In this document: positions 15,358 to 36,942 of the stretch, one piece after another
How positions within the stretch are numbered: the stretch's first letter is position 1
Layout of the letters: every line of letters starts with the position of its first letter
IMG/VR virus record: IMGVR_UViG_2795386110_000001
Coordinates: 1-64,000 of that record
DNA from: a virus
Lineage: Duplodnaviria > Caudoviricetes
Strand: one strand, 5' to 3'
Length of the DNA: 64,000 nucleotides
The notes under the pieces: model-generated
Databases searched by the model: none
The model's input: only the letters and a program-made list of their open reading frames with translations
Told to the model about the DNA's origin: nothing
Translations under genes and position numbers: made by a program

Positions 15358-15361
15358 GGCC

Positions 15362-20226: not shown

Positions 20227-20236
20227 GCTGTCGGGG

Positions 20237-20584: not shown

Positions 20585-20666
20585 TTTGCCGTCACTTTAC
20601 TTAATATGATTGTGAAAACTGGCTAGGGCAAGCGGATTTGGAAAGAATGCAAGGAGTACCACAAAC
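20585..20666 (+). repeat. Array repeat R1 (variant, lacks the TGACCTG head)
   Basis: CTTTACTTAATATGATTG-TGAAAACTGGCTAGGG-CAAGCGGATTTGGAAAGAATG. Confidence 0.85.
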
Positions 20667-20697
20667 CGCCCCAGAGAGACCCAGAGAGGACCCGATC

Positions 20698-21393
20698 ATG
20701 AGCGAGACGTACGCGGAGCGCCTGGCCCAGGGAAACCCGCAGGCCGCCGCCGCCTTCCAGCTCGGCCAGATCATCGAAGCCGTCGACACGGCGCGCGCCG
20801 CCGCCGAGGAGGTCAAGCCGAAGGTGTGGCACTTCGCGAGCAGCGCCGACGTCCGCGTAGCCGTCGACCAGGAGCAGGTGGCCGACGGGGACGTTGTGGT
20901 CGTCGAGTCCGAGTGCGTCGTCGGCTTCGTGGCCGTTGTCTGGCCGGTCGCGATCACGGAGCAGCACGGCGCCTTCCACGCGTACACCCAGCTCGGGAAG
21001 CCCGCTCGCGAATACTGCAAGGGCGACTACACCCGCAGCGTCGAGCGGGCCGAGCAGATCGCCATCGAGCTGGGCTACAAGCTCGCCGACCCGTCCGCCG
21101 CCCAGACGGCCCGGATCGCCGCCGGCCTGCCCGTGACCTTCGAGACCCCGCGGATGCTCGTCGAGCCCGCCGACATCCTGCACGCCTTCGGCGCCCGCCT
21201 GAACGTCATCGATGCCGGTGTGCGGATCGACCCTGCCACCAGCCAGGGCGAATGGTGGGCGCTCGTCGAGGGCGCCGCCGAGGAGGACCAGCGGCGCACG
21301 TACCGCGGCCAGTGGGCGTTCGCCGTGCCCGTTGCGAACGCGGCCTGGGACGTCGTGACCGTCGAGCGGGTCCTTCCGGCCCCGAGTGCCTGA
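20698..21393 (+). CDS. Hypothetical protein (unit 1)
   Basis: GAGGA RBS plus ATG right after R1; high GC3. Confidence 0.75.
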   Translation: MSETYAERLAQGNPQAAAAFQLGQIIEAVDTARAAAEEVKPKVWHFASSADVRVAVDQEQVADGDVVVVESECVVGFVAVVWPVAITEQHGAFHAYTQLGKPAREYCKGDYTRSVERAEQIAIELGYKLADPSAAQTARIAAGLPVTFETPRMLVEPADILHAFGARLNVIDAGVRIDPATSQGEWWALVEGAAEEDQRRTYRGQWAFAVPVANAAWDVVTVERVLPAPSA

Positions 21394-21428
21394 CCAGAAC
21401 AGACGACAGGAAAGGACGGCGACTGACC

Positions 21429-21770
21429 GTGGCGCAGAGCTTCGAGACCTTCAAGGGCGAGATTGAGCGCGCGTTGTCCGCGTGCGGGGTGGACCCGCAG
21501 GAGTGGTGCGACGTGAACGCTGCCGCCCGCTACCTCACCGAGGACCAGCACACGAACGCGCCGGACGAGTTCTGGTCGGTGGTCCGCCGCCACCGCCGCA
21601 CGGCGCAGCGGGAAGCCGCGATCGACCGGGCGATGTTCCTCGACGACCTCGAACTGGAGCTGACGGGCGGCTGCGGGCGGTGCAGCCTGGAAGCCGACCA
21701 GATGTGCGTCAGCTGCGGGAAGTGCAACTGCTTCCGGCACGACGAGTGCACCCGGCCCGCCAGCCAGTAG
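21429..21770 (+). CDS. Hypothetical protein with C-terminal Cys cluster (unit 1)
   Basis: GGCGRCSLEADQMCVSCGKCNCFRHDEC. Confidence 0.7.
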   Translation: MAQSFETFKGEIERALSACGVDPQEWCDVNAAARYLTEDQHTNAPDEFWSVVRRHRRTAQREAAIDRAMFLDDLELELTGGCGRCSLEADQMCVSCGKCNCFRHDECTRPASQ

Positions 21771-21790
21771 ACGAGGGAGTCGCAGGCCTG

Positions 21791-21880
21791 TGACCTGCGG
21801 TTTTCTTTGGCGATCATTTACTGAATCAACTTGTTAAAACTGGCTAGGGTAAGTCGATTCAGAAAGAATAGTAGTTCAAA
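21791..21880 (+). repeat. Array repeat R2
   Basis: TGACCTGCGG...CTGAATCAACTTG-TTAAAACTGGCTAGGG-TAAGTCGATTCAG-AAAGAATAGTAGTTCAAA. Confidence 0.92.
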
Positions 21881-21905
21881 CCACCACCAACGACAGGAGC
21901 GGGAC

Positions 21906-22247
21906 ATGCGCGGAACGAAGGTCACCCCCGAGCACGGCAGGTGCCTGAAGTGCCGTCGTCCCCTCCACAACCCCAGCCCGGACGGTCTCGGCCCGAAGTG
22001 CAGACGCAAGCTGCGCCGCGCTACCCGGACCGAGGCCGCCCACCCGAAGTGGCAGGTCGCCAAAGCGGCCGAGCTGCTGGAGCTGGGCGCCGTCATCCCG
22101 CTCCGCCAGAACCGGATCTTCCTCGTCGTCGCCGACGACGGCACGGAGGTCTACCGGACCGCCGCCACCGGCCAGTGCAACTGCCCGGCCGGCCTGCGCT
22201 CCGTCCGCTGCTACCACGCCGTGGCCGCCCACCTGCTGGCCGCCTGA
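21906..22247 (+). CDS. Zn-finger (DUF6011-like) plus SWIM-like protein (unit 2)
   Basis: CLKCRRPL...GLGPKC and CNCPAG...CYH motifs. Confidence 0.8.
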   Translation: MRGTKVTPEHGRCLKCRRPLHNPSPDGLGPKCRRKLRRATRTEAAHPKWQVAKAAELLELGAVIPLRQNRIFLVVADDGTEVYRTAATGQCNCPAGLRSVRCYHAVAAHLLAA

Positions 22248-22266
22248 TCACGAAGGAGACACCCCG

Positions 22267-22791
22267 ATGTCCGCCTACCTCGCCACCGTCCGCCGCCTCA
22301 ACCACCTCGCCGCCGTCGTACGCGGCCGGGCCTACCACCCGCAGCGCTACATGATCGAGACGCTCGCCGGGGCCATCGAGGACGCCGCGATCGCCATCCA
22401 GTCGTTCCCGGTCGATGAGCCCGGCGAGCTCCCCCAGGGAGCGATCGACGCCCTGCGTGAGGCCACCGACCTGCTCACCCAGAACGACTTCATGATCCCG
22501 GCCGCAATCGTCGGCTACGCCATCGCGCCGGTCACCGGCGTCATGCCGCAGATGGAGCCGCTCAAGGCGGTCAGCCTTCAGCTCGCCCGTCAGGACGCGG
22601 ACCTGCGCGCCCGCCGGGTCGCCCTGATCGAGCACGGGCACCTCAACTCCCGCGACGAGGAGGTACTGACCGCGGCCCTCACCGGACTGGTCGCCCTGCA
22701 CCGCCAGCACGAGCGCCTGGCCGCCGCCGTCGCCGTTGACAACGACCGGCCCTGCAACCGCGGCAAGGCCCCCGCCGACCTCGCCCACTGA
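22267..22791 (+). CDS. Hypothetical helical protein (unit 2)
   Basis: AAGGAG RBS; high GC3. Confidence 0.75.
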   Translation: MSAYLATVRRLNHLAAVVRGRAYHPQRYMIETLAGAIEDAAIAIQSFPVDEPGELPQGAIDALREATDLLTQNDFMIPAAIVGYAIAPVTGVMPQMEPLKAVSLQLARQDADLRARRVALIEHGHLNSRDEEVLTAALTGLVALHRQHERLAAAVAVDNDRPCNRGKAPADLAH

Positions 22792-22819
22792 CCACCCCCA
22801 GCAAGAGCAGGAGTGCCCC

Positions 22820-23116
22820 ATGTCCATCCACTTCGCGACCCGCGTCGACCAGCTACCGAGCTTCTTCCAGGTGCCCTGCATAGCGTGCGAGATCACCGGC
22901 GAGACCGGCCAGGCCGACAGCGTCGTCTGCGCCACCAGCGGCTTCGGCCTCGGCTCCTGCACGAACCACATCGACGTCACCGCAAGAGTGCTGCGCACGC
23001 TCCGCAACTACGAGCTGGCCGGCCTGCGCACCGCGTTCGTCACGGCCGGGATCACCCCTGAGCCGCAGCACGGCGGCGAGCGCACCGAGCAGCACAGCGA
23101 AGGGGGAGGGAACTGA
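22820..23116 (+). CDS. Small Zn-binding hypothetical protein (unit 2)
   Basis: PCIACE...SCTNH; AGGAG RBS. Confidence 0.7.
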   Translation: MSIHFATRVDQLPSFFQVPCIACEITGETGQADSVVCATSGFGLGSCTNHIDVTARVLRTLRNYELAGLRTAFVTAGITPEPQHGGERTEQHSEGGGN

Positions 23117-23117
23117 G

Positions 23118-24023
23118 ATGCCGATCTACCTGCCCGCTCCCGAAGCCCCGGCCGGAGGGCCCGACGGCAAGGGATGGAACAGACTGAGCCTCAACGCCCA
23201 CGGCGGCTTCCTGGCACAGTGCGCCCTGCGGCCCCGACGGTGGGGTGCGCTGCTGGAGTCCCACGACACCCGGCGGGCCCGCTGGGGAGGGTTCGGGCCC
23301 TGCGTCAACCGCGGCGACTGCAAAGACTGCCCGATGCGGCAGGCCGTCGACGAGCAGTGGACCATCATCCCGATGAACGTCTCCCGGGTCCTGGTCCGCG
23401 TCGAGCCGATATACGGGTCGGACGACGCCATGTTCGTCACCGGCCCAGACGGCTGGCGCCTGTGGCTGACGACCGGACCTGACGACCGCGACTACCGCAA
23501 CCGGCCGCCACTGGGCTGGGACGCCATTGCCCGCGTGCGCGGCTGGGACCTCGGCCGCCCGTACATCGACGAGCACGGTGAGGGCTTCTGGCTGGAACGC
23601 ACAGCCCGCGTCCCCGCCTGGGGCTGCTCCATCGGCACGAAGATCTGGCCGTCGTTCACCCGGCACGCCTTCCGGGTGGCCAGGACCGGGGTCGCCCTCC
23701 TCCACCACCACGGCGACTGCGCGCACGGCGACGAGCTGCTGAACGCGATCTCCCACGCCTGCCCCGGCCCGGACGGCGCCGACGAGGAACGGGTGCCGGT
23801 CCACTGGCGGCAGGCGGCGGAGATGACGCCTCCGGCCGTCGGCGACCTCTGGTTCGGCGTCGACGTGGCGACCATGAGCGTGCGGATCGTCGCCGTCGAC
23901 GGGCCGAGGAACGAGCGGGCCCGGCTGACCCTGTCCGGGTCCGGCTGGACCGCCGAGCGCGTGAGGGCGGCCGGCGAAGCACTCCGCGCGTACCTCGACG
24001 GACACGCGAAGGGTGGTGAGTGA
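23118..24023 (+). CDS. Hypothetical protein (unit 2)
   Basis: 301-aa Trp/Cys-rich ORF with GGAGG RBS. Confidence 0.75.
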   Translation: MPIYLPAPEAPAGGPDGKGWNRLSLNAHGGFLAQCALRPRRWGALLESHDTRRARWGGFGPCVNRGDCKDCPMRQAVDEQWTIIPMNVSRVLVRVEPIYGSDDAMFVTGPDGWRLWLTTGPDDRDYRNRPPLGWDAIARVRGWDLGRPYIDEHGEGFWLERTARVPAWGCSIGTKIWPSFTRHAFRVARTGVALLHHHGDCAHGDELLNAISHACPGPDGADEERVPVHWRQAAEMTPPAVGDLWFGVDVATMSVRIVAVDGPRNERARLTLSGSGWTAERVRAAGEALRAYLDGHAKGGE

Positions 24024-24211
24024 CCGTGAAAGGCCTCGTTCCGCTCGACTCGATCCTGTACCGCGTGCGCTTCATCTGGCCGGACGCTCAGTGGGTGCTG
24101 CGCGAGCCGCCGGGCGTGCGGCCGTCGCTCACCTGGAAGGGTGGGCCGACCGTCGAGGAGGTCACCGTGGAGCTGCGGCGGCCGGACATCGACATGACCC
24201 GCGCCAACTGA
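24020..24211 (+). CDS. Small hypothetical protein (unit 2)
   Basis: GTGA coupling; LTWKGGPTVEEV. Confidence 0.6.
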   Translation: MTVKGLVPLDSILYRVRFIWPDAQWVLREPPGVRPSLTWKGGPTVEEVTVELRRPDIDMTRAN

Positions 24212-24219
24212 CGGGCTTC

Positions 24220-24310
24220 TGACCTGGGTTCTTAGAAGTTCTTTTACTGAAACAGCTTGTTAAAACTGGCTAGGGCAAGCTGTTTCGGAAAGAATGAGAG
24301 TAGTTCAAAA
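24220..24310 (+). repeat. Array repeat R3
   Basis: TGACCTGGG...CTGAAACAGCTTG-TTAAAACTGGCTAGGG-CAAGCTGTTTCGG-AAAGAATGAGAGTAGTTCAAAA. Confidence 0.92.
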
Positions 24311-24341
24311 CGCACCACCTCACCGAGAACAGGAGCCCGCC

Positions 24342-24623
24342 ATGGACGCCGCCACCTTCACCGCCGTGTTCGCAGTCGCCGCCACCTCCACCACGTGGAC
24401 CCAGACGAACCTCGGCAACGTCACCGAGGTCAGCCACGCGGGCCAGACCTGGACGGTCCTCCTGCCCGGCATGGGCACCGACGAGAACGGCGAGGCCACG
24501 CCGAGCAAGGCGCGGATCACCGGCCACTTCGGCTTCGGCGGCACTGAGTTCGCCGACGTGGAGGCCACGTGGGGCCAGACGACCGGCATCGTGGACGCCG
24601 CTATGGCGGCCTTCCGTATCTGA
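24342..24623 (+). CDS. Hypothetical protein (unit 3)
   Basis: AGGAG RBS plus ATG after R3. Confidence 0.7.
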   Translation: MDAATFTAVFAVAATSTTWTQTNLGNVTEVSHAGQTWTVLLPGMGTDENGEATPSKARITGHFGFGGTEFADVEATWGQTTGIVDAAMAAFRI

Positions 24624-24690
24624 CCCCCCAACCCTTGGGCCCGGCACCTGAAGGTGCCGGGCCTCCCTCATGCCTGCACGGAGGCAAGCC

Positions 24691-25758
24691 ATGGAGCAAC
24701 TCGACCTGTTCGCCGACCTCGGCGCACCGGAACCCCCCAAGCCCGAGAAGACGATCACCCTGCCGAAGCCGACCGCGGGCCAGTACGCGACCGCCGTGGC
24801 GCGACCGCCGCAGTCGAAGCCGCAGCAGCCGGCCCTCGTTCCGGAGGCGGACCCGGCTCCGGCCCGGCGGCGCCTGGAGTTCGCCATCCGTCCCGCCGAC
24901 GGCCTCACCTTCGGTGAGGCGGTCGCGGACGCGTGGCACGGCTCGTACGGCGGGAACCGCATGGAGATCCCCGTGGGCATCGTCGCCACCCTGGCGCTGT
25001 GGCCGCAGAAGGGGCACCCGCGCACCCTTGCCGAGTTCTTCCGGGGCCTGGACGCCGAGCAGCTCATCGCCTGTGTCCGGGAGGTCGCCGCCTACTGGTG
25101 GATGCGGCGCCCCGACCTGATCGACACCGCCTCGGTGCTGTTCCACTGGGCGGAGGAGGAGAAGTTCACGAAGAACGAGCTGGCCGCCATCCGGGCCACG
25201 TTCCACGCGGCACTGAACGCGAACGTCCTCGACCACACCGGCCGCGAAGACCCGGCGTGGAACTCGGAGATCGACCTGATGTCATGGGCGGTCACCACTC
25301 TGCGGCACAAGTCCGCGCGGTCCGGCCTGGGCGAGTACCACACGCCCCCGGAGGTGTGCGACATGATGGCCGCCCAGATCCTCGGCAGCGACCCCGAGCA
25401 GATCCGGGAGGGCTACTCGGTCCTCGACCCGTGCGCGGGCACGGGCGGGATGTTCCGGTCTGCCGTCAACCACGTGCGGAGCATGGGCATCGACCCGGCC
25501 CGCATGACGTGGTTCGCGCAGGAGCTCGACCCGCTCGCGGCGGCTGGCTGCGCCGTCAACATGATCGTGTGGGGGATGGGCCCGAACGCCATGGTGGCCT
25601 GCGGCGACACGCTCGCCGAGGGCAACATGTGGCAGCGGGCGGTCGAACACCGGAAGTTCATGGTCGAACGGCGGGACGACGCCGCGGCCGTCATAGCGAT
25701 CGCCCGTGCGGTGCACCAGGTCGAGCAACTCGTCTCCGGAGGCTCCGCAGCCGCCTGA
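24691..25758 (+). CDS. N6 DNA methyltransferase-like (HsdM-like) protein, no NPPY/F motif seen (unit 3)
   Basis: GEYHTPPEV, VLDPCAGTGGM, QELD and GDTL motifs; stop codon is the TGA of R4. Confidence 0.85.
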   Translation: MEQLDLFADLGAPEPPKPEKTITLPKPTAGQYATAVARPPQSKPQQPALVPEADPAPARRRLEFAIRPADGLTFGEAVADAWHGSYGGNRMEIPVGIVATLALWPQKGHPRTLAEFFRGLDAEQLIACVREVAAYWWMRRPDLIDTASVLFHWAEEEKFTKNELAAIRATFHAALNANVLDHTGREDPAWNSEIDLMSWAVTTLRHKSARSGLGEYHTPPEVCDMMAAQILGSDPEQIREGYSVLDPCAGTGGMFRSAVNHVRSMGIDPARMTWFAQELDPLAAAGCAVNMIVWGMGPNAMVACGDTLAEGNMWQRAVEHRKFMVERRDDAAAVIAIARAVHQVEQLVSGGSAAA

Positions 25759-25849
25759 CCTGCTGTTTCCTTTGGCGTTCTTTTGCTGAATCAGATTGTC
25801 CAAACTGGCTAGGGTAATCCATTTCGGACAGAATGAAAGTAGTCCAAAA
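25756..25849 (+). repeat. Array repeat R4
   Basis: TGACCTGC...CTGAATCAGATTG-TCCAAACTGGCTAGGG-TAATCCATTTCGG-ACAGAATGAAAGTAGTCCAAAA. Confidence 0.9.
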
Positions 25850-25880
25850 CGAACCAACCTGCACGGAACGGGAGCCAGCC

Positions 25881-26066
25881 ATGGACGCCAGGACAGCGAT
25901 CGCCGAGACCTTCCACCCCGACCACGCTCTCGCCGTCGGCGATTGGGTGCTCGTCTTCGGGAACTGGCACGAGGCCATCGACACCGACGAGATCCGGAGT
26001 GTCGAGCCCTTCATCACCCACTACCTGACCGCCGAGCAGGCGCGCGCCCTCACCTCCGGCGCCTGA
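25881..26066 (+). CDS. Small hypothetical protein (unit 4)
   Basis: GGGAG RBS plus ATG after R4. Confidence 0.7.
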   Translation: MDARTAIAETFHPDHALAVGDWVLVFGNWHEAIDTDEIRSVEPFITHYLTAEQARALTSGA

Positions 26067-26153
26067 CCACCATCCACCCCACCCGGCCCGGCACCGGGCG
26101 CCCTCCGGCGCCCCGAGTGCCGGGCCGGCCTCATCTCTGAAGGGCTGATCGAT

Positions 26154-26879
26154 ATGACCGCTATCCGCGCCTACATCACCGCCGGACTTCGCTTCCCGGC
26201 CGACGAGATCCTGTGCAAGGGTGACCGCTGGCAGCGAGGATGCGCCGCCGTCGACGGAGAGGCCGCGTACGCGATCCACACCTTCGAGGGCAAGCACTTC
26301 TGCGGCTACCACTCGCCGTTCGACAACAAGTACGTGCCCTGCGCCAACTGCGGCGAGAAGCTGGTGCTCATGGCCATGGAGGGCGACGCGGTCTGCGACG
26401 ACTGCCTGATCGCCATCAACCGGGTGACGGAGTACGACTACTACCTGGCCATGACCGGCGCGCACGACCTGCGCCACCCGCACCGGCCCGCTCCGGTCGA
26501 CCTCCCGGTGAGCGACTACGTCGACCACCACACCAGGGAGGAGATCGGCGCGGAGGAGGCGGCCGGCCACGTCTGCGACGAGGTCGAGGAGCGCGCCACG
26601 TACGGCCGGTACGTGTCCGACGGCCTGGCCGACACCGACGGCCACTACGCGCCCGAGCCCTTCGAGGCCTGGCAGGCGCACTACCACCGGGCGATCGGCT
26701 ACAAGGAGCCGCGCACGGAGGAGTGCACCGAGACGGAGTGCAAGGCCCCGAGCCACGAGCGTGTGAAGTGCGTGCAGGACCGGATCCCCGGCAAGGGCCG
26801 GAAGGTCCGCACGTACAGCGTCTGCCCCGGCTGCTACGACCGGCGCCTCGCCGAGTACCGCGCCTCCCGCGCCGCCTGA
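26154..26879 (+). CDS. Cys/His-rich hypothetical protein (unit 4)
   Basis: FCGYHSPF, CANC...CDDC and CPGC motifs. Confidence 0.75.
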   Translation: MTAIRAYITAGLRFPADEILCKGDRWQRGCAAVDGEAAYAIHTFEGKHFCGYHSPFDNKYVPCANCGEKLVLMAMEGDAVCDDCLIAINRVTEYDYYLAMTGAHDLRHPHRPAPVDLPVSDYVDHHTREEIGAEEAAGHVCDEVEERATYGRYVSDGLADTDGHYAPEPFEAWQAHYHRAIGYKEPRTEECTETECKAPSHERVKCVQDRIPGKGRKVRTYSVCPGCYDRRLAEYRASRAA

Positions 26880-26949
26880 CGCGGCCCCGACCTCCCCAAC
26901 CATCTGGGCGCGCACCCCAGTGCGCCCCTGGCCCCCCAAGGGATCTCAC

Positions 26950-27741
26950 ATGCTCGACGTGACGGCAGGAATCACCGAAGCGCTCATCAAAGCCGCCGTG
27001 GAGAAGGACGCGCGGCTCACGAAGTACGTCCACCAGGTCAAGGTCAGTACCCGGCGGAAGACGCTCGGGATGAGCATCAAGCCCGGCGACCCCGGCATCA
27101 CCCTGCACGTGCCGGTCGGCACCGCGGCAGACACGGTGGTCGACACCGTCGCGGGGAACATCGACCGCCTGGTCAGCCTCATCAGCAAGGCCCGCCAGCA
27201 CGCCCCCGACCACCCGGCGAAGGAGCTGGTGAACGGCTCCGGGTTCCAGTGGCTCGGCCGCTCGGACCGGCTGAAGATCGTGGACGACGCACGGGTGCCC
27301 CTCGAACGCGCCCACACGGGGCAGTGGTGGTTCCTGCTGGCCCGGGACGCGAAGCCGCTCGGCGCTCGCCCGTTCATCGACTGGTACGTGCGCGAGGGCA
27401 CCGCGTGGCTCTCGCAGGAGACGGCCTCCATGTGGTCGCGGATTGCGGGCGACCGGCCGATACCGACGGTCCGCGCGGCCGACATCGGCCGGCGCCGCTG
27501 GGGCGTCTACCACAGCGGCAAGCACGAGGTGCGGATCGCGTGGCAGGCGTTCCAGCTGCGGCCGGCCCTCGTGCGGCACGTCCTCGTCCACGAGTTCACC
27601 CACGCGCTGGTGCGCACCGGTAAGCCGCACGGGCCCGAGTTCTGGCGCGCGTTCGAGCGCGGCCACATCGGCGCCCGCCAGGAGGCCCGGCAGCTCGACG
27701 AGGAAGGCCGCCGAGTCTGGATGGGCGACCTCGCCTCCTGA
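26950..27741 (+). CDS. YgjP/M48 (DUF45)-like zinc metallopeptidase (unit 4)
   Basis: STRRKTLGM, RRWG, HVLVHEFTH and PHGPEFW motifs. Confidence 0.88.
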   Translation: MLDVTAGITEALIKAAVEKDARLTKYVHQVKVSTRRKTLGMSIKPGDPGITLHVPVGTAADTVVDTVAGNIDRLVSLISKARQHAPDHPAKELVNGSGFQWLGRSDRLKIVDDARVPLERAHTGQWWFLLARDAKPLGARPFIDWYVREGTAWLSQETASMWSRIAGDRPIPTVRAADIGRRRWGVYHSGKHEVRIAWQAFQLRPALVRHVLVHEFTHALVRTGKPHGPEFWRAFERGHIGARQEARQLDEEGRRVWMGDLAS

Positions 27742-27782
27742 CCCCCGAACCGCCCGCAGCGCACGAAGGAAGGACCGAGAAC

Positions 27783-27977
27783 ATGGCGTCGAAGAAGACG
27801 GACGAGCTGGTGGCCAAGCTCCGCCAGAACGGGGCGCAGGTAGTGAAGCGCGGGTCGCGGTGGCGCGTAACCCAGCCGGGCAAGGGCCTGGGCTTCCTGG
27901 CGACCTCTGACCCGAAGGACCGCAAGGGCCTGGAGAACAAGATGGCCGACCTGAGACGGAAGGGTTACGACGTCTGA
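27783..27977 (+). CDS. HicA-like small protein (unit 4)
   Basis: ELVAKLRQNGAQVVKRGSRWRV...TSDPK...ADLRRKG; HicA-like layout without the usual His. Confidence 0.65.
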   Translation: MASKKTDELVAKLRQNGAQVVKRGSRWRVTQPGKGLGFLATSDPKDRKGLENKMADLRRKGYDV

Positions 27978-27982
27978 GCCCC

Positions 27983-28073
27983 TGACCTGCTTTCTTTGTC
28001 GTTCTTTTATGGAAACAGCTTGTCTAAACTGGCTAGGGCAAGTCATTTCGGAAAGAATGAAAGTAGTTCAAAA
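27983..28073 (+). repeat. Array repeat R5
   Basis: TGACCTGC...TGGAAACAGCTTG-TCTAAACTGGCTAGGG-CAAGTCATTTCGG-AAAGAATGAAAGTAGTTCAAAA. Confidence 0.92.
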
Positions 28074-28104
28074 CACATCAACCTACACAGAACGGGAGCC
28101 AGTT

Positions 28105-29020: not shown

Positions 29021-29053
29021 CCACCCCACCAGTTACGGTCAGAGGAGAGCGCA

Positions 29054-29549: not shown

Positions 29550-29639
29550 CCTGCGGTTTTCTTAGAAGTCCTTTTACCTAATCAGATTGTTAAAACTGAT
29601 TAGGGCAAGTTGATTCGGAAAGAATGAAAGTAGTTCAAA
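29547..29639 (+). repeat. Array repeat R7
   Basis: TGACCTGCGG...CCTAATCAGATTG-TTAAAACTGATTAGGG-CAAGTTGATTCGG-AAAGAATGAAAGTAGTTCAAA. Confidence 0.92.
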
Positions 29640-29670
29640 CCACCCCATCTCGTCAGTGAAGGGACAAGTT

Positions 29671-30939
29671 GTGACCGCCACCGCCACCGCCACCCCCGAG
29701 GCCACCGTCACCGAGACCGACCGCACGGAGGAGTACGTCGACCCGTCGGCGACCCCGGCCGGCCCCGCCCCGGACGGCCTCGGCGCGCGGGACGACGCCC
29801 CGGCCGAGAAGAAGCCCGCCCGCCGCAGCCCGCGCCGCGCGCCCGCGACGAAGACTGCGGCCGCCGCGAGAAAGGCCCCGGCGAAGAAGGCGACCGCCAA
29901 GCAGACCGCCGACGGGCAGCGGACGCAGCTCCGCACGATCCCGACGGCGAAGATCGACCGCGACCCGGGCCAGCCCCGCGAGCACTTCGACGAGGCCGCG
30001 CTCCAGGAGCTGGCCAAGTCCATGGCGAAGCTGGGCCAGCTCCAGCCGATCAACGTCCGCTACAACGAGGACACGAAGCGGTTCACGATCATCATGGGCG
30101 AGCGCCGCTGGCGGGCCGCCCAGATCGCCGGCCTCGCGCAGATGAAGGCCGTCGTCATGCACGGCGTCGGCGAGGGCCGCGAGACGTTCGCGATGGCCGT
30201 CGCCGAGAACGTCGGCCGCGCCGACATGACCGCCGTCGAGGAGGCGAAGGCCTTCAAGAAGCTGGTGGACGCCGAGTACACGGTCGATGAGGTGGCCGAA
30301 CTGGTCGGCAAGAGCGCCGCCTACGTCCAGTGGCGCATCGACCTGCTGCGCCTGTGCCCGGAGGCGCAGGAGGCCCTCGTCAAGAACCAGCTGCCGGTCG
30401 GCCTGGCCTGGTACGTCGGCAAGCTGTCCAACGACAACCAGGTGCGGTTCCTCGGCCGCTGGGTGCGCGGCGACTTCAAGAGTGCCCGCGACGCGGAGGC
30501 CTTCGCGCAGGCCCTCCACACCGAGGAGAAGCGCCAGGAGGAGCAGGGCTCGTTCTTCGTCCTCTCCGAGGAGGCGGCAGCCACCCGCAAGGACAACGGG
30601 CAGGACGCCCTGCCGGGCACCCTCGACCTCCCCGAGGAGGAGCGAGAGCGGATCGTCGCCGACCGCAGCAAGCTCGTCGGGAAGATCGAGAAGCTGGGCC
30701 AGGCCGGAGAGATCCTCTCGCTGCTCGCCGCCACCGACGAGGAAGAGCTGGCCCTGCTGCTCGCCGGTACGCCCGGCGGCATCGGCGGTCACCGCCTCCG
30801 TATCAAGCACCTTCAGGACATCGCGACCAAGGCGATGGCGAACCTCCGCAAGGCGGAGATGGTCGCCGAGGTCCGCGCCAGCGGCCTGACCGTCAACCCC
30901 GACGCCGAGGCCGGCGGCGACGCCGACGCCGCCGCCTGA
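29671..30939 (+). CDS. ParB/RepB/Spo0J-family protein (unit 7)
   Basis: QPREHFD, LQPINVR, GERRWRAA, ENVGRADM and HTH TVDEVAELVGKSAAYV. Confidence 0.92.
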   Translation: MTATATATPEATVTETDRTEEYVDPSATPAGPAPDGLGARDDAPAEKKPARRSPRRAPATKTAAAARKAPAKKATAKQTADGQRTQLRTIPTAKIDRDPGQPREHFDEAALQELAKSMAKLGQLQPINVRYNEDTKRFTIIMGERRWRAAQIAGLAQMKAVVMHGVGEGRETFAMAVAENVGRADMTAVEEAKAFKKLVDAEYTVDEVAELVGKSAAYVQWRIDLLRLCPEAQEALVKNQLPVGLAWYVGKLSNDNQVRFLGRWVRGDFKSARDAEAFAQALHTEEKRQEEQGSFFVLSEEAAATRKDNGQDALPGTLDLPEEERERIVADRSKLVGKIEKLGQAGEILSLLAATDEEELALLLAGTPGGIGGHRLRIKHLQDIATKAMANLRKAEMVAEVRASGLTVNPDAEAGGDADAAA

Positions 30940-31012
30940 CCACCCACCCACCGGCGCCCCGCCCAGGCAGCGGGCGGGGCGCCCCCCTTCACCCCTCCAA
31001 GGAGACAGACCC

Positions 31013-31312
31013 ATGAAGCGACCCGTCAGCTTCCACGACCAGCCCGTGCCGACCTTCACCCCGTACGACGTTGCGAAGGCCGTCCTGGAGCACTGCGGCG
31101 ACCAGTGGGGCGCCGAGCCCGGCCCCTGGGCCACCACCGGCCACCTGCGGGCCTGGGACAACACCCCGTTCACGATCGGCGTCAACCCGACCGGCGAGCT
31201 GTTCGTCCGCAACGACCACCTCGGTGACGCCCTCCCGCTGCCGGTCGAGCCGACCGACGACCTCGACACCATCGCGCGCGCGGTCGCCGAGATCGTCGGC
31301 CACCTCTACTGA
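31013..31312 (+). CDS. Hypothetical protein (unit 7)
   Basis: AAGGAG RBS; high GC3. Confidence 0.7.
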   Translation: MKRPVSFHDQPVPTFTPYDVAKAVLEHCGDQWGAEPGPWATTGHLRAWDNTPFTIGVNPTGELFVRNDHLGDALPLPVEPTDDLDTIARAVAEIVGHLY

Positions 31313-31363
31313 TCTAAGCCCCGTTCACGCAGGCCAGAACCCTTTACCCCTCGAAGGACCCCG

Positions 31364-32191
31364 ATGGAGATCCCAAGCGGCGTCTACGACGTCCTCACCG
31401 ACACCCGCACAGTCATCGCCGGCGACCGGGTGCAGATCCCGTTCGAGCTGGACCGCGCCCAGTACGAGCAGGTGAACAAGGTCCTGAAGGAGATCGGCGG
31501 CCGGTGGGACGGCCGCAACGCCGTGCGCGCCCACGTCTTCCCCTTCCCGGTGGAGGAGTTCATGCGGGCTTGCCTCGCCACCCGCGAGTTCCCCAGCCGG
31601 TACGAGCAGGGCTGGTACCCGACCCCGCCGCGCGTGGTCCACGACATCCTGGAGCACGCGGCGATCAGAGAGGGCATGAGCGTTCTCGAGCCCTCAGCCG
31701 GTACCGGCTCGATCACGGGGCCGGCGGTCCGGCGCGGCGCCGTCGTCGACTGCGTGGAGATAGACGAGTGGCGCGTCCGGGTCCTCCGCGAGCAGGGCGC
31801 CGCCCGCCGCGTGGTCCACGCGGACTTCCTCGACCTGGACCCGCTCGACTGCCCCCACGGCTATCGCAGGGTGCTGATGAACCCGCCGTTCGCGGCGGCC
31901 GTGCAGCACGTGCAGCACGCGATGGGCTTCCTCGACGACGACGGCGTGCTGATCTCGGTCCTGCCCGAGTCGGTCATGTGGCACAGCGACCGCGCCACGA
32001 CCGAGTTCCGCGAGCTGATCGCCCTCGCCGAGGGCGAGTTCATCCCGCTGTCCGACGAGTCGTTCGCACCGTCCGGGACGAGCGTGCGCACCGTGCTCCT
32101 GGTCGTCACCTCCGAGCCGGGCGGGCCGCTGCCCACCCACGGCTGGTGGCAGAGGCAGCCTCGACAGCTCGGCCTCTTCGCCCTAGCCTGA
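31364..32191 (+). CDS. SAM-dependent DNA (amino) methyltransferase (unit 7)
   Basis: WYPTP, VLEPSAGTG, VEID, ADFL, MNPPF and SFAPSGT motifs; stop codon is the TGA of R8. Confidence 0.9.
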   Translation: MEIPSGVYDVLTDTRTVIAGDRVQIPFELDRAQYEQVNKVLKEIGGRWDGRNAVRAHVFPFPVEEFMRACLATREFPSRYEQGWYPTPPRVVHDILEHAAIREGMSVLEPSAGTGSITGPAVRRGAVVDCVEIDEWRVRVLREQGAARRVVHADFLDLDPLDCPHGYRRVLMNPPFAAAVQHVQHAMGFLDDDGVLISVLPESVMWHSDRATTEFRELIALAEGEFIPLSDESFAPSGTSVRTVLLVVTSEPGGPLPTHGWWQRQPRQLGLFALA

Positions 32192-32283
32192 CCTGCGTTT
32201 CTTTGTCTCTTCTTTACTTAATCAGCTTATTTAAATTGGCTAGGGTGAGCCGATTCGGAAAGGATGAGTGAAGCACCACAAAC
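32189..32283 (+). repeat. Array repeat R8 (R1-like variant)
   Basis: TGACCTGCG...CTTAATCAGCTTA-TTTAAATTGGCTAGGG-TGAGCCGATTCGG-AAAGGATG...CACCACAAAC. Confidence 0.88.
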
Positions 32284-32305
32284 CACCCCAGGAAAGGGCA
32301 GAGTC

Positions 32306-32533
32306 ATGGAAAAGGCGGACATCATCCAGAAGATCAACAACGGGGATCTCTTCGTCCTCACCCGAGAAGAAATGGCCCTGCTCCTCCCCTGGCTCCGGGA
32401 CACCGTCACCGCCCAGGAGAGGAAGGACGAAAACGCGGACCTCTGCCAGTTCTTCAGCCGAGTCATGCGGCTTGCGAACCAGCTCTACGGCACCGAGCCG
32501 TTCAACCGCGAGACCTGCATCTGCAACGGCTGA
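32306..32533 (+). CDS. Small hypothetical protein (unit 8)
   Basis: GAAAGGG RBS plus ATG after R8. Confidence 0.65.
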   Translation: MEKADIIQKINNGDLFVLTREEMALLLPWLRDTVTAQERKDENADLCQFFSRVMRLANQLYGTEPFNRETCICNG

Positions 32534-32594
32534 CACCCCACAGGGGGCCGCCCAGGCGGCCCCCGACTCCAACATCCCCCCGGAAAGGACGGGA

Positions 32595-33014
32595 ATGGAT
32601 CTCGCCACCTGCACCTACCAGGAGTTCACGCCCGACATGGGCGCTCCGATCCGCACCACCGCGGGTCACCCGCGCTTCCCCCTCGGCTACGAGTTGGCCG
32701 GTCACGCCACGCTCATCACGCCGACCCGGGAGCTGCTCGCCCAGAACCTGCCCGAGGACGCCTACGAGTTCAGCTACCGGCGCATTCTGAACGGCTACGG
32801 CATCCACCGCATCTGCGCCGAGCTGGCCGGCCTCGCCGCCCGGAACGGCGGCGCCCGCCTGGTCCTGCTCTGCTTCGACCGCCTCGACAAGCTGCGCCCG
32901 GCAGACGCCTGGTGCCACCGGATCCATTTCGCGAAGTGGTACCTGGAGCAGACCGGCGAGGAGATCCCCGAACTCGGCGCCCGGCCGGCGACCCCGCCGC
33001 CCTCCCTCTTCTGA
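32595..33014 (+). CDS. DUF488-like protein (unit 8)
   Basis: ITPTRELL...YRRIL...LVLLCFD...WCHRIHFAKW...EIPEL. Confidence 0.75.
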   Translation: MDLATCTYQEFTPDMGAPIRTTAGHPRFPLGYELAGHATLITPTRELLAQNLPEDAYEFSYRRILNGYGIHRICAELAGLAARNGGARLVLLCFDRLDKLRPADAWCHRIHFAKWYLEQTGEEIPELGARPATPPPSLF

Positions 33015-33096
33015 CCAGCCCCTGACCAGCCCTTTCCGACGGGCGGGACGCACGGCGTCCCGCCCGTCACCCATGCCCGGAAGGAACGAACGCACC

Positions 33097-34815
33097 GTGC
33101 CCTACATCGACGCCACCACCCAGGCATGGGCGGCGAGCAGTCCAGCCCGCCCGTACAAGCACGACGGCAGCGTGCTGACAGCCATGAGCTGGTTCTGCGG
33201 CGCCGGAGGGGACACGCAGGGCGGGGACGCGGTCCCCGGCGTGCAAGTCACCCGGGCGGCGAACCACTGGGACGTCGCCCTCGCCACGCACACCTGGAAC
33301 AACCCGAACTGCGACGTGTGGAAGGGCGACATCCGCCGGGCCCCGGTTGAGAAGTGGCCGGTCTGCCAGCTCTTCTGGGCAAGCCCGGAATGCCCGAAGT
33401 GGAGCGCGGCCCGGGGAGTGAAGCGCGACTTCGACCGAACCATGCAGGGCGACTTCGACTTCGAAGAGGAGGAGTTCAAGAGCGAGAAGGAGCGGCGGGC
33501 GGCCGAGGAGCGCTCGCGCGCCCTCATGGAAGAAGTCCCGATGTACCTGCGGGGCGTCATCAACCGCGGCGGCCTGGTCCTCGCCGGAGTGGTCGAGAAC
33601 GTCATCGACTGCCGGGACTGGGACCAATGGGACCGCTGGGTCGGCGAGTTCCACAAGATGGGCTACCGCACGAAGCTCCTCGCCATCAACTCGATGCACG
33701 TCGCCCCGCGCACCATGCCGCGCGTCCCACAAAGCAGGGACAGGCTGTACTTCGTCTACTGGCACGAGAGCATCGGACGCAACCCGGACTTCGACAAATG
33801 GGTGCTGCGCCCCGACGCCTGGTGCTCCGACTGCGACGAACAGGTCCGCACCGTCCAGGTCTTCCGCAAGCCCGGCAAGGACATGGGCCGCTACCGCCAG
33901 AGCTACGACTACCGGTGCCCGAACGCGCACTGCCGCGCGATCGTCGAGCCCTCCGTCCTCCCGGCAGCAGCGGCGATCGACTTCTCGATCCTGGGAACGC
34001 CGATCGGCGACCGGGAGAAGACGGACGACTGCCCCGAGGGCCTCGCCCCGGCCACGATCGCCCGCGTCCGCGCCGGAGGCGCCCAATACTGGGGCTGGGG
34101 CATGGACGAGGAAGACGGCCAGGGCTCGCTGTTCGGCGACATCGACGCCGAGCCCGGCGCCGAGCCCGGCCCGCTCCTCGTCCCGGCCGGCGGGACCTGG
34201 CGGAACAATGCGATCGGCCTGGACGTGCCGATGCCGACCCGCACAACGGTCGAGACCGACGGCGTCGCGTTCCCGCCCTTCCTCGTGCCCTGCGAGGGCC
34301 GCACCGGCAAGAAGCCGATGCGCCTGGACGAGCCGATGCGCACCCAGACGGCCCGCGCAGAACTCGCCATCGCCCACGCGCCGTTCGTGGTCCCCATGCG
34401 CGGCGGCGGCGACAAGGAGAAGGCGCGGCACCTCGGCCATCCGCTCCACACGGTCTCGGCGGGCGGTAATCACCACGGGCTGGTGGGCCTGCCTGACCAC
34501 CTGCTCGTGCCGTACTACGGCAACGGCCAGGCCCGGCCGGTCACCGAGCCGGTCGGCGCCCTGCCGACCCGCGACCGGTACGCGCTGGTCAAACGGAACT
34601 TCACCATCGACGAGGTCCTGTTCAGGATGCTCCAGCCGCACGAGATCCACAGGGCGATGGCCTTCCGGCCGAAGTACAAGATCATGGGCTCGAAGCGCCA
34701 CCAGGTCAGGCAGCTCGGCAACGCCGTCACCCCGGCGGTCGCCGAGGTTCTGTACTGCGCGCTGGCCGAGTGCATCACCGGCGAGGAGATCAGCCGGTAC
34801 GAGCTGGCCGCCTGA
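33097..34815 (+). CDS. C5 cytosine DNA methyltransferase (unit 8)
   Basis: WFCGAGG, ASPEC, VENV, PQSRDR and QLGNAVTP motifs; stop codon is the TGA of R9. Confidence 0.93.
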   Translation: MPYIDATTQAWAASSPARPYKHDGSVLTAMSWFCGAGGDTQGGDAVPGVQVTRAANHWDVALATHTWNNPNCDVWKGDIRRAPVEKWPVCQLFWASPECPKWSAARGVKRDFDRTMQGDFDFEEEEFKSEKERRAAEERSRALMEEVPMYLRGVINRGGLVLAGVVENVIDCRDWDQWDRWVGEFHKMGYRTKLLAINSMHVAPRTMPRVPQSRDRLYFVYWHESIGRNPDFDKWVLRPDAWCSDCDEQVRTVQVFRKPGKDMGRYRQSYDYRCPNAHCRAIVEPSVLPAAAAIDFSILGTPIGDREKTDDCPEGLAPATIARVRAGGAQYWGWGMDEEDGQGSLFGDIDAEPGAEPGPLLVPAGGTWRNNAIGLDVPMPTRTTVETDGVAFPPFLVPCEGRTGKKPMRLDEPMRTQTARAELAIAHAPFVVPMRGGGDKEKARHLGHPLHTVSAGGNHHGLVGLPDHLLVPYYGNGQARPVTEPVGALPTRDRYALVKRNFTIDEVLFRMLQPHEIHRAMAFRPKYKIMGSKRHQVRQLGNAVTPAVAEVLYCALAECITGEEISRYELAA

Positions 34816-34905
34816 CCTGCGGTTCTTGTAGGTTTCTTTACTGAATCAACTTGTTAAAACTGGCTAGGGCAAGGTGATTCGGGAAGAATGAAAGTAGTTC
34901 AAAAA
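34813..34905 (+). repeat. Array repeat R9
   Basis: TGACCTGCGG...CTGAATCAACTTG-TTAAAACTGGCTAGGG-CAAGGTGATTCGG-GAAGAATGAAAGTAGTTCAAAAA. Confidence 0.92.
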
Positions 34906-34930
34906 CACACCAACTCCGCAGGGGATGAAG

Positions 34931-35170
34931 ATGCGCGACTACCTGAACAAGACCGAGCTGCTCGCCGCCATGAACAACGGGGAGCGCCTGGAGGCCCACC
35001 CGCGCACCCCCTACGCGGGAGAACAGGTCGAGTACCTGCCCCGCGTGGACATCGTGGGCGGCAAGCCGACCAGTCACCCGGACTTCTACCCCTGGCGCGT
35101 GGTGGGCCGCTCCGGCGACTACCGCCTGCGTAACAGCGAAGTCGTGGTCATCGAGGCCGCCGCCAACTAG
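34931..35170 (+). CDS. Small hypothetical protein (unit 9)
   Basis: First ORF after R9; high GC3. Confidence 0.7.
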   Translation: MRDYLNKTELLAAMNNGERLEAHPRTPYAGEQVEYLPRVDIVGGKPTSHPDFYPWRVVGRSGDYRLRNSEVVVIEAAAN

Positions 35171-35243
35171 CCCGCCCGGCCGGGGAGCAGGCAGCGCTCC
35201 CCGGCCCGCCCGATCAGCCACCACACCACCAAGGAGCACCGGC

Positions 35244-36032
35244 ATGGCCCGCATCACTCGCCCCGCCCGCATCGGCGTCATCAGCGACGGCGTCCTCACC
35301 CAGGACGGCAACCCGTTCAACCTGAAGTACCTGGTCATGGACGCGCAGCCGGACGGCGTCCTCGAGGACGTTGTCACGCCGGACTACGTGACCGGTGAAG
35401 CCCTGTACCGGACCGGCTTGGTCGTCGGCCACGACGGCAAGGGCCTGGGAGTCGCCTGGCCGGCGAACCCGCTGCCGACACCGCGTGTCCCGATCGCCGC
35501 CGACCACTCGGCGCTGGCCGCACGCCAGTCGGCGGGCACGTACTTCCCCACCCCCGAGGGCTCGGCGCTGATCTCCGCAGACTTCGTGCCCGGAGAGCAC
35601 TCGCTTTCGATTACCGGCCCGAACGCGACGTACGCCCGCGAGACCCGCGACCGCATCCGCGCGGCCATCGCGAACAGCGGCATCCAGTGGCCGCTCGGCG
35701 CCATGGGCGTCGTCGCTCACTGGACCGTCGCTCGCGGAGGCGCGGCCGCCGACCTCGCCCTCGCCTGCACCGCCCTCGCCGCCTCCGGCAACATCCCCGC
35801 CAACGCCGTGGACGGCGTGACCATGATCGGCCAACTCGGCCTGGATGGCCGGGTCCACGCGGTCCGCGACTTCCACGAGCTGATGCAGCTCGCCATCGAC
35901 GCCGGCGACCCGAAGTTCGTGGTCCCCGAGGAGCAAGTCGCCGAGGCCGTCGCCTCGTTCCCCGACGTGGCTGTGCAGGGCGTGCGAACCCTGAACGACG
36001 CCCTGACCTTCCTCACCGAGATGGCCGACTGA
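35244..36032 (+). CDS. Protein with a ComM/YifB (Mg-chelatase-like) N-terminal domain and no AAA+ domain (unit 9)
   Basis: ARETRDRIRAAIANSG, DLALAC and IGQLGLDGRV motifs. Confidence 0.8.
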   Translation: MARITRPARIGVISDGVLTQDGNPFNLKYLVMDAQPDGVLEDVVTPDYVTGEALYRTGLVVGHDGKGLGVAWPANPLPTPRVPIAADHSALAARQSAGTYFPTPEGSALISADFVPGEHSLSITGPNATYARETRDRIRAAIANSGIQWPLGAMGVVAHWTVARGGAAADLALACTALAASGNIPANAVDGVTMIGQLGLDGRVHAVRDFHELMQLAIDAGDPKFVVPEEQVAEAVASFPDVAVQGVRTLNDALTFLTEMAD

Positions 36033-36109
36033 CCTCACCCCGAACGGGCCGGGGCAGGCAGCGCCCCGGCCCCACCACCCGCCCCCACCAGCGAAAGGAA
36101 CCGACCCAC

Positions 36110-36706
36110 ATGACCAGCAAAGCCTTCTGGACCGAGTACTTCGAGGACGCCTACCGCGACGCCGTCAAGAAACGGGGCGAGGTCCTCGACCATGGCCTGC
36201 TCCTCATCGCCCACGTGATCCGCGAGGAACTCCCCACGGCCACGGCCGTCAGCGTCACCAGCGGCATCGTGGCAGCCGTACACGACTCCGAAGGCACGAT
36301 CTGGCGGTTCAACGACGAGACCAGCAACCTGAGCCGCCGAGCCCTCAGGGAGATCCGGGACACGCTCCTCGACATGTTCACCTTCACCCGCACCACGTAC
36401 CCGCTCCTCGCGGCCAACTGGAAGCCGGTCCCGGACCAGCCCGACACCCTCCGCGTCGAACTGCCCAAGGACCCCGACAAGAAGGACCAGGAGCAGAACA
36501 CGGCCCCGGCCGGCAACGACCGGCCGCACGGGACGCCGGGGGAGGACGCGGGGAACTGCGCCCAGTGCAGCCGACCGCTGATCTGGGACGGGACAGGCAA
36601 GCGCGTGAACGACGAGTGGGGCGAGCACCTCTGCTACGGCCCCCGCTCGGCCGACGCACGGTCCAGGGTCCACGTCCTGGCCGCGCCGCAGACGGCCACC
36701 GCATAG
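36110..36706 (+). CDS. Hypothetical protein with C-terminal Zn finger (unit 9)
   Basis: GAAAGGA RBS; CAQCSRPLIW...HLC. Confidence 0.7.
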   Translation: MTSKAFWTEYFEDAYRDAVKKRGEVLDHGLLLIAHVIREELPTATAVSVTSGIVAAVHDSEGTIWRFNDETSNLSRRALREIRDTLLDMFTFTRTTYPLLAANWKPVPDQPDTLRVELPKDPDKKDQEQNTAPAGNDRPHGTPGEDAGNCAQCSRPLIWDGTGKRVNDEWGEHLCYGPRSADARSRVHVLAAPQTATA

Positions 36707-36942
36707 CTAAGCAGCAGACGGGCCGGGGAGCAGGCAGCGCTCCCCGGCCCTCACTGCGGATCTAAGCACCTCAACCCCCCGAGCACTCCGCCACCCCAAG
36801 CGGCAGCCCCCAGGCCCTCTACGAGATCCACACGGCCCCCATGGGCCACGCTTCCGCCCCTCCCCACCACCCAGGAGCGCCCCCCGATGGCTACGGCACA
36901 GCTGGCGTTCGACCTGCCCGGCTTCGGGTCGGACGTCCCCAG

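Follow-up and report, generated by a model that had tools for sequence, protein, structure and literature searches.

The subject of this analysis is a repeated element in a 64,000-nt stretch of DNA, here called the window, which makes up the first 64 kb of the 90,113-bp provirus record IMGVR_UViG_2795386110_000001, a Streptomyces prophage. Nine co-oriented copies of the element, which is AT-rich and about 96 nt long, are located on the plus strand between positions 20574 and 34908. From sequence alone, they outline the transcription units in the methylase-rich accessory region of an uncharacterised lineage of Streptomyces prophages with records of about 85-100 kb. An earlier note on this DNA had proposed that the repeat is both a shared promoter/operator and a joint at which gene cassettes are gained, lost and shuffled. 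In the present study the copies, their relatives in other prophages and the genes around them were compared, and the element is probably a composite cassette of promoter/operator and leader, specific to the phage, that stands in front of every short operon in the accessory region.

Copies of the element and their distribution

A repeat finder returned three overlapping families (D1, D2 and D7) at nine sites between 20.5 and 35 kb, and alignment of the nine stretches gave one element. A covariance model (R1; 96 positions, 19 pairs) was made from the nine copies, which match it with E-values of 2.5e-24 to 8.7e-15. For the 16-nt loop word TTAAAACTGGCTAGGG, allowing up to two mismatches, nine forward and no reverse matches were obtained in the whole record, and the backwards control of the word gave no match. 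Neither the loop word nor R1 detected a copy past base 34908 or elsewhere in the 90,113-bp record, the final 26 kb included. The nine co-oriented copies, and the lack of any other copy in the window, were thus confirmed as the earlier note had described them. The copies and their parts are as follows.

20574-20669, plus strand: copy 1, with hairpin, loop box, AAGAAT and leader, lacking CTGACCTG; next start codon at 20698
21790-21884, plus strand: copy 2, with the GTGACCTG variant; next start codon at 21906 (DUF6011-like gene)
24219-24313, plus strand: copy 3, the top-scoring copy in the window; start codon at 24342
24219-24226, plus strand: CTGACCTG of copy 3
about 24242-24295, plus strand: hairpin of copy 3
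24263-24275, plus strand: loop box AAACTGGCTAGGG of copy 3, with TGGCTA at 24267-24272
24290-24295, plus strand: AAGAAT of copy 3
25755-25852, plus strand: copy 4, with the -10-like box CAGAAT; next start codon at 25881
27982-28076, plus strand: copy 5; next start codon at 28105
28928-29024, plus strand: copy 6; next start codon at 29054 (frameshifted family 77 homologue)
29546-29643, plus strand: copy 7, with the loop variant AAACTGATTAGGG; next start codon at 29671 (ParB-like gene)
32188-32286, plus strand: copy 8, with the -10-like box AAGGAT; next start codon at 32306
34812-34908, plus strand: copy 9, the sole copy with an orthologue in the sister prophage G004; next start codon at 34925

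Three of the copies begin on the stop codon of a methylase-type gene: the TGA of copy 4 (25756-25758) ends the N6 DNA methylase gene 24691-25758, that of copy 8 ends the methyltransferase-like gene 31364-32191, and that of copy 9 ends the C5 DNA methylase gene 33097-34815. Just upstream of copy 2 there is a GC stem of 6-8 bp, of which CCTGCGG forms the 3' half.

In a scan of positions 19000-40000 no Rfam 15 family overlapped any copy at E <=1. The element itself had no match in the phage collection, for which the only match to the 16-kb region was a 51-nt segment of phage phiSAJS1, and a literature search with the loop word yielded nothing relevant among the matches listed. The profile search suggested in the earlier note recovered Streptomyces prophages with the same array, which is present with 8-11 copies in at least seven prophages other than that of the window. 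Five whole Streptomyces genomes (8.2-11.8 Mb) contained 8-11 R1 matches each, all in one single-strand cluster. Moreover, four other large proviruses with the element were recognised among viral contigs by an exact pattern, and arrays turned up in seven Streptomyces assemblies, the five whole genomes among them, when one genome per species was scanned for the pattern. With R1, nine co-oriented copies and a weak reverse-strand echo of the palindrome were found in each of the prophages G001-G003, and one copy was found in G004. Scattered single matches in other phyla were rejected as chance word matches, their rate fitting 16 fixed bases by our own estimate, as were two small low-GC viral contigs (L017 and L024; R1 score <=8 bits).

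The comparison set consisted of eight array-bearing prophages (G000-G003, G005-G007 and G009), of which G007 is cut by its contig, together with G004. One further prophage, G008, has the same spacing as G003 and was not counted separately.

Architecture of the element

The following counts refer to 75 copies from these nine prophages, all of them in the orientation of the genes. From left to right the element is composed of C-TGA-CCTG(C/G)GG, a run rich in T, a hairpin, the box AAGAATGAAAGTAG, a stretch rich in C and A, an RBS (ribosome binding site) and a start codon. The hairpin is imperfect, with 19 bp, and runs in the order TTCTTT, one or two unpaired bases, an arm of 13-15 nt, a 12-nt loop, the complementary arm and AAAGAA. 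The arms had been recognised in the earlier note, which drew them too short, since the stem runs on through TTCTTT/AAAGAA. Conservation peaks at the loop box and at the AAGAATG box and not in the stems. The near-invariant loop box AAACTGGCTAGGG is exact in 56 of the 75 copies and its TGGCTA is present in 70; the box downstream reads AAGAAT in 57 and CAGAAT in 14 (71 of 75 together), with A at position 2 in 75/75 and T at position 6 in 74/75. The spacer between TGGCTA and AAGAAT/CAGAAT is 17 nt long and free of gaps in 75/75. The consensus given in the earlier note is accurate for these two boxes and their spacing; its TGACCTG is missing from copy 1.

An RBS and a start codon, the latter opening a frame of at least 40 codons, follow at +113 to +127 from the start of the element (median 124) in 71 of 75 copies. 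The start codon is thereby about 17-31 nt past the 96-nt core, at the end of a CA-rich leader of about 38 nt that includes the RBS. This bears out the earlier description of an RBS and a start codon soon after each copy, followed by one to five plus-strand genes. The description of the copies as purely intergenic requires a qualifier, since in 33 of the 67 non-first copies the called gene upstream, from one or another of many unrelated families, terminates on the TGA within CTGACCTG. In the first copies of all eight array-bearing prophages the hairpin, the loop, the -10 box and the leader are kept and CTGACCTG is absent. Therefore, the left motif accompanies an upstream gene on the plus strand, and the remainder is sufficient to head an operon. 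A possible terminator at the left motif was also considered. In 42 of 57 minimum-energy folds CCTGCGG pairs with bases lying upstream, in a small stem around the stop codon; the stability of this stem is like that of shuffled sequences (mean z 0.09, 57 copies), and a consensus terminator scan flagged two of the nine window copies. At 33010-33075, the place of a copy ahead of the C5 methylase gene in some relatives, CTGACCAG occurs twice and is followed by a GC-rich hairpin; the gene-end motif is therefore present there without the other parts of the element.

A shared N-terminal extension starting from the ATG of AAGAATG (for example 24294-24296) was considered and rejected: of 69 copies, 36 have this ATG in the reading frame of the annotated start, 32 of them with an open frame, and 33 have it in another frame. 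The in-frame excess, which is above one third and not universal, probably results from the common 48-nt spacing.

Evidence for a probable promoter/operator-leader cassette

The position of copy 1 is informative, as two features separate it from the upstream operon.

20196-20228: GC-rich, terminator-like inverted repeat between the stop of the plus-strand operon (20182) and the end of the minus-strand gene
20237-20521, minus strand: 94-aa gene, divergent from copy 1

Copy 1 sits 53 nt beyond the start of this minus-strand gene. The inverted repeat would isolate copy 1 from upstream plus-strand transcription. Because a terminator-like hairpin and a divergent gene precede it, copy 1 must initiate transcription. 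The divergent gene precedes copy 1 in seven of the eight array-bearing prophages (it was not called in G001), and a shorter form is present in G004.

The second line of evidence was obtained from G004, which has the gene order of the window and a single copy of the element, the last one. In G004, TAGTAT, TAGGAT, AATGAT, TAGAGT or TAGAAT stands directly after a compact palindrome at each of five sites that precede the same or similar genes.

539-576, 2784-2821, 5508-5545, 8322-8359 and 11154-11191 of contig L045 (G004): promoter-like sites of two AT-rich motif types, each a palindrome with a TAGRRT-type box

At the four sites that were measured, these -10-type boxes are located 36-46 nt before the start codon. 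The -10 form of Streptomyces promoters is TAGRRT, with which (A/C)AGAAT shares five of its six positions. When orthologous gaps are aligned in pairs, AAGAAT of the element falls on TAGGAT or AATGAT of G004; between the two lineages the leader and the T-rich part on the left are retained and the central hairpin is replaced. One G004 site retains CTGACCTGCG at the end of the upstream gene. Additionally, G004 lacks the immunity-region and early genes common to G000-G003, which fits a lineage-specific regulator.

The earlier suggestion of a promoter with TGGCTA, 17 bp and AAGAAT thus receives indirect support from the invariant spacing, the position of copy 1 and the alignment with the -10 boxes of G004. 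The simplest model would comprise three modules. A gene-end piece, the stop TGA within CTGACCTG(C/G)GG and the T-run, would belong to the upstream gene. The promoter would have the box AAACTGGCTAGGG in its -35 region (TGGCTA at -35), presented in the loop of the 19-bp imperfect inverted repeat, and the -10 box (A/C)AGAAT exactly 17 nt downstream of TGGCTA. The 3' repeat arm fills this spacer, where the operator of a phage-specific regulator would sit, so that the repeat may be an exchangeable operator-like part matched to the regulator of each lineage. The third piece would be the -10 box with the CA-rich leader and the RBS up to the start codon. We infer promoter activity, a transcription start about 7 nt past AAGAAT, and binding by a phage-encoded factor that would read the loop box and/or the arms and thereby switch the nine units together. 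Since the -10 box is without its first T and the -35 match is poor, the promoter would be expected to need or obey such a factor.

Several observations weigh against this interpretation. No sigma-70-type promoter was found in any copy by a consensus scan, for which the sole match in 19500-37500 lies elsewhere. The -10 box has T at position 1 in 0/75 copies, and TGGCTA agrees with TTGACA at three of six positions by hand comparison. In the record, no regulator was found and no sigma factor domain scored above the cut-off; the early genes gave no Pfam match even at E <=1. For the divergent 94-aa protein the Atlas lead was 'HTH cro/C1' (0.87), and its structural model (mean predicted local distance difference test score 85.8) has one long and two short helices and no fold match at E <=0.001, so that its gene product is a candidate regulator only. 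Moreover, the centres of the two repeat arms are about 32 bp apart, an uncommon distance for a simple dimeric operator. The plus-strand fold is the more stable one in 68 of 75 copies (mean -17.9 versus -13.5 kcal/mol). Finally, a plain double-stranded operator leaves unexplained that paired cells contain 258 G-U against 54 A-C combinations and that nine of the 19 pairs carry compensatory changes.

These structural features are what would be expected if the hairpin worked mainly in plus-strand read-through RNA, either as an intercistronic site of cleavage (for example by RNase III) or by stabilising an upstream message at its 3' end or a downstream one at its 5' end. In a variant of this explanation the hairpin would bind a phage RNA-binding antiterminator, and a promoter would be unneeded except perhaps at copy 1. 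At about 19-21 bp, the stem would suffice in length for a double-strand-specific RNase. In the model alignment of the 75 copies, which are not independent, pairing was found in 88.8% of 1425 cells and nine of the 19 pairs are changed on both sides; compensatory cells amount to 65, compared with 30.6 +/- 4.1 in shuffles, and pairing falls to 39-57% when the partner is slid by 1-3 columns. The fold of copy 3 has z = -3.0. However, the shuffles alone pair at 85.2%, and most of the pairing therefore reflects sequence conservation of both arms, while the compensatory cells are concentrated in related copies of one clade. The strand bias arises partly from fixed U-G pairs beside the loop, and these pairs may do no more than belong to the conserved box. 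The stem is also less conserved than the loop and the box after the stem, no U-tract follows the stem, which overlaps the -35 region, and Rfam gave no match. Copy 1 has no upstream plus-strand transcript to process, and G004 swaps the hairpin for short palindromes beside canonical -10 boxes. Altogether there is moderate evidence, short of proof, that structure in the plus strand matters, and a role of the hairpin in RNA, in place of or in addition to the promoter, is possible though rather unlikely.

Two further assignments were rejected. WhiG-type, sigma-B-type, sigma-54-type and extracytoplasmic function (ECF) promoters differ from the element in spacing and conserved positions, as judged by eye against their consensus sequences. 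An operator of the immunity repressor within the element was also discarded, as outside the copies the arm motif occurs only at chance-like sites and as a half-site at 20537-20549, and the palindrome of the immunity region (15361-15401) is unrelated.

Gene units and their exchange among relatives

Gene-family maps of the eight arrays were used to compare the units. Five units, headed by families 11/61, 13, 26, 29/30 and 54/32/78/113, are in the same order in all eight prophages, and between and after them there are mosaic units (families 18, 20/21, 45, 65, 99, 24, 77/89, 103, 31/53/92 and 66). Some of the differences concern whole units of element and gene, and others lie within units; the N6 methylase, for example, follows five different genes. 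Content thus varies between relatives, as the earlier note had expected of a cassette array, while the order of the five units is fixed. For ordered genome pairs with both flanking families present, 66 of 154 junctions with an element were broken (43%), compared with 107 of 364 junctions without one (29%). This is a modest excess of breaks at the elements, and breaks at ordinary junctions are common too.

In a tree of the 75 copies, labels of downstream genes (ten groups) required 17 changes, compared with 37.8 in shuffles, and labels of genomes required 59. The copies group by downstream gene and not by genome, and are therefore old orthologues rather than homogenised repeats. When the downstream gene is shared and the upstream gene differs, the identity of the element is 0.750 in its left half and 0.838 in its right half; when only the upstream gene is shared, the values are 0.678 and 0.745, against a background of 0.661 and 0.696. 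In a sliding comparison, linkage to the upstream gene stops at the left edge of the element. Triple alignments placed the switch point of a two-gene insertion in G007 at +13 to +32 of the element in four of five comparisons, and several other switch points between -21 and +19; this breakpoint mapping is noisy, with 4-24 conflicting sites per comparison. In G009 most of gene 77 and its element are deleted; since the 3' end of the gene is left, the deletion bypassed the element. Copy r5 of G002 has a hybrid-looking hairpin.

A function mainly in recombination, as a 90-bp homology for RecE/RecT-like or host recombination or as the site of a dedicated recombinase, with promoter-gene cassettes that are cut out, inserted and reshuffled, would account for the whole units that vary among the eight prophages (for example families 77, 24, 45, 66 and 103-104), for the excess of broken element junctions, for the switch point in G007, the hairpin in G002 and the intact element at every junction. 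YqaJ/RecE-like and RecT genes are present in the prophage and absent from the one-copy G004. However, no tyrosine (PF00589) or serine (PF00239) recombinase domain was matched in the 90,113-bp record, while control genomes were positive. The fixed order of five units in 8/8 prophages, the clustering of copies by position with no sign of homogenisation, the 107 broken ordinary junctions, the G009 deletion and the noise of the breakpoints also argue against this explanation. Furthermore, the element tracks the downstream gene in its left and in its right half, with linkage to the upstream gene ending at the left edge, so that crossovers are not spread across the 90-bp homology. Such a function is considered very unlikely. 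A combined explanation, in which a phage factor would read a strand-specific single-stranded hairpin (RNA or DNA extruded at the promoter) and thereby turn on the nine units jointly, and in which the units would be truly mobile between Streptomyces prophages via the left edge with RecE/RecT-like help, is somewhat less improbable but still doubtful; if true, it would give actinophages an equivalent of the PeSL mini-circles with a structured recognition signal of its own.

With the element taken as a promoter/operator-leader cassette, the units are modules of a promoter cassette and its genes that usually have their boundary at the left edge, and their variation represents ordinary phage mosaicism with a mild preference for this site. 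Gain or loss of gene units at the left edge would then be a by-product. The part of the earlier cassette proposal that stands is the presence or absence of units among the eight relatives, with one switch point inside the element. The largely conserved order, the lack of homogenisation and the G009 deletion speak against the remainder, and the integron-like platform was not upheld, as the record has no tyrosine or serine recombinase and the element is at the 5' and not the 3' end of its genes.

Genomic surroundings

Genes were called by third-position G+C and scanned against Pfam and PHROGs. The array and its surroundings in the window contain the following features.

3099-5048: RecE/YqaJ-like and RecT genes
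15010-15297, minus strand: HTH_3 gene, facing the rightward operon 15560-20182
15361-15401: nearly perfect inverted repeat with arms of about 19 bp, lying between the HTH_3 gene and the rightward operon
20698-36706, plus strand: nine short gene groups headed by the copies, with three DNA methyltransferase-like genes and many genes without a family hit
24691-25758, plus strand: N6 methylase
26998-27741, plus strand: YgjP-like peptidase
29671-30939, plus strand: ParB-like protein (ParB_N and HTH_ParB), inside the array
31364-32191, plus strand: methyltransferase-like protein
33097-34815, plus strand: C5 methylase
35244-36032, plus strand: ChlI/Lon-like protein
36.7-39.4 kb, minus strand: low-GC island

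WhiB-like and helix-turn-helix genes are also part of the prophage layout and are listed between the RecE/RecT genes and the HTH_3 gene. The inverted repeat at 15361-15401 may be an immunity operator. The seemingly empty unit that follows copy 6 contains a frameshifted family 77 homologue from 29054 to about 29549. The shift is near codon 119, and the displaced C-terminal part ends at the TGA of copy 7; this gene could be a pseudogene or the result of a sequencing error.

The G+C content of the copies (36-52%) is below that of the window, which runs at about 60-75% per kb. In combination with the ParB-like protein encoded within the array, this would suit copies that serve as nucleation sites for a DNA-coating protein, either a ParB/KorB-like protein of the prophage or an AT-seeking silencer of the host, which would silence the accessory region in the lysogen. 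Global repression via many palindromic sites is exerted by KorB of plasmid RK2. Partition or silencer sites would not be expected to show strict co-orientation, a constant spacing from the start codon or a loop box that lacks symmetry, and the ParB-like gene is also present in the one-copy G004; this explanation is highly improbable, the least probable of those considered.

Further observations concern the remainder of the window. The low-GC stretch 37000-40000 includes, at 36943-39365 on the minus strand, a Septu-like two-gene defence-type pair, in which a 523-aa ATPase matches PtuA/PDC-M01A (E 7.8e-154 and 5.4e-127) and a 284-aa HNH protein matches PDC-M01B (E 3.6e-70). The pair sits between the last array unit and the late genes, where relatives have other genes. 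ARAGORN placed a tRNA-Gly(tcc) at 39677-39750, and a permissive Rfam scan of 19000-40000 listed no tRNA. The terminase, portal and other virion genes are located from 42.5 kb onward, and among isolated phages none is closely related, the best terminase match being to Saccharomonospora phage PIS 136 (46% identity). Late genes at 59157-62025 contain direct repeats within them, about 351 and 174 nt long and with 60-86% identity (D3, D4, D8 and D10-D13), so that tail or fibre-type proteins with repeated domains may be encoded there. The left end of the record (464-869) has a tRNA-Met gene and two tRNA-Asn genes of identical sequence, which may mark a host flank or an attachment region.

Implications and comparison with known systems

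If the promoter interpretation is correct, the nine units would be one co-regulated set with a compact, portable and probably inducible control signal, which could serve as an expression part for Streptomyces. The different palindromes of G004 at the same sites would then represent a natural swap for studying how regulators and operators are matched. The arrays also offer a second, independent system outside the T4-type phages for studying how far the gain and loss of genes follow repeated regulatory cassettes; in the eight relatives the effect is slight and lies at the left edge, and the analogy with integrons is tempered accordingly.

In the sections consulted of two reports on T4-type phages, the promoter-early stem-loop cassettes (PeSLs) are described as units of about 100 bp that span from stop to start codon and hold a terminator formed by a stem-loop together with a strong early promoter; they occur mainly in plastic regions, and recombination into mini-circles was shown (PMC2839356, PMC4122927). 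The element is similar to PeSLs, as far as these sections describe them, in combining a stem-loop, an AT-rich region with a promoter (a putative one in the element) and a Shine-Dalgarno sequence, and in its many co-oriented copies within a plastic, non-essential part of the genome in which flanked genes are inserted, deleted or replaced between relatives. It also has the same span, beginning at the upstream stop in 33 of 67 non-first copies and reaching the start codon in 71 of 75. In the same sections, however, the PeSL stem-loop is a separate GC-type terminator before a consensus sigma-70 promoter, whereas the AU-rich 19-bp hairpin of the element encloses the -35 region and the element has neither a scored canonical promoter nor a U-tract. 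Promoter, terminator and mini-circles of PeSLs were, by that account, proven at the bench, and the element is known here only from its sequence. The element further differs in belonging to a temperate actinomycete prophage, in having no sequence similarity to PeSLs and in its weaker shuffling.

[quoted passage not shown] With arms of 13-19 bp and copies conserved per downstream gene family, the element resembles the ESAS portrayed there in design only. The 13-bp SAS GGGATAGGAGCCC had no match at <=2 mismatches, and at <=3 mismatches 13 matches were found, one of them in a leader, compared with 25.8 expected. The ESAS spacer is given there as variable (4-13 bp), whereas the loop of the element has a fixed length and is its most conserved part; unlike those SAS/ESAS, the element has a -10-like box and a leader of about 45 nt between its repeat and the start codon.

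The temperate Streptomyces phage phiC31 has a series of similar non-canonical early promoters, each with an inverted repeat bound by the phage repressor, ahead of successive early transcription units. The element resembles these promoters in broad layout. Unlike them, it has no match in the phage collection, and the prophage is not phiC31-like; its best terminase match is to PIS 136 (46% identity). The Samy prophage, a phiC31-like phage according to the portion consulted of its report, does not bear on this lineage (PMC11302927). As in integron attC arrays, imperfect inverted repeats are located between co-oriented unrelated genes in units that are present or absent. In contrast to integrons, there is no integrase and no attI/Pc, and the element is tied to the 5' end of the downstream gene and not to the 3' end of a promoterless cassette. 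In attC sites the structure is conserved and the sequence is not; in the element the loop sequence is conserved.

Phage T7 has pairs of promoters and RNase III sites between its genes, with hairpins in the RNA, and the stoperators of Cluster A mycobacteriophages are repressor sites oriented with transcription. These systems share with the element many co-oriented intergenic signals that organise successive gene groups, and differ from it in that neither a phage RNA polymerase nor repressor sites to match were found for the element. The element therefore belongs with signals of the PeSL, ESAS/SAS and phiC31 kinds and is itself specific to its lineage.

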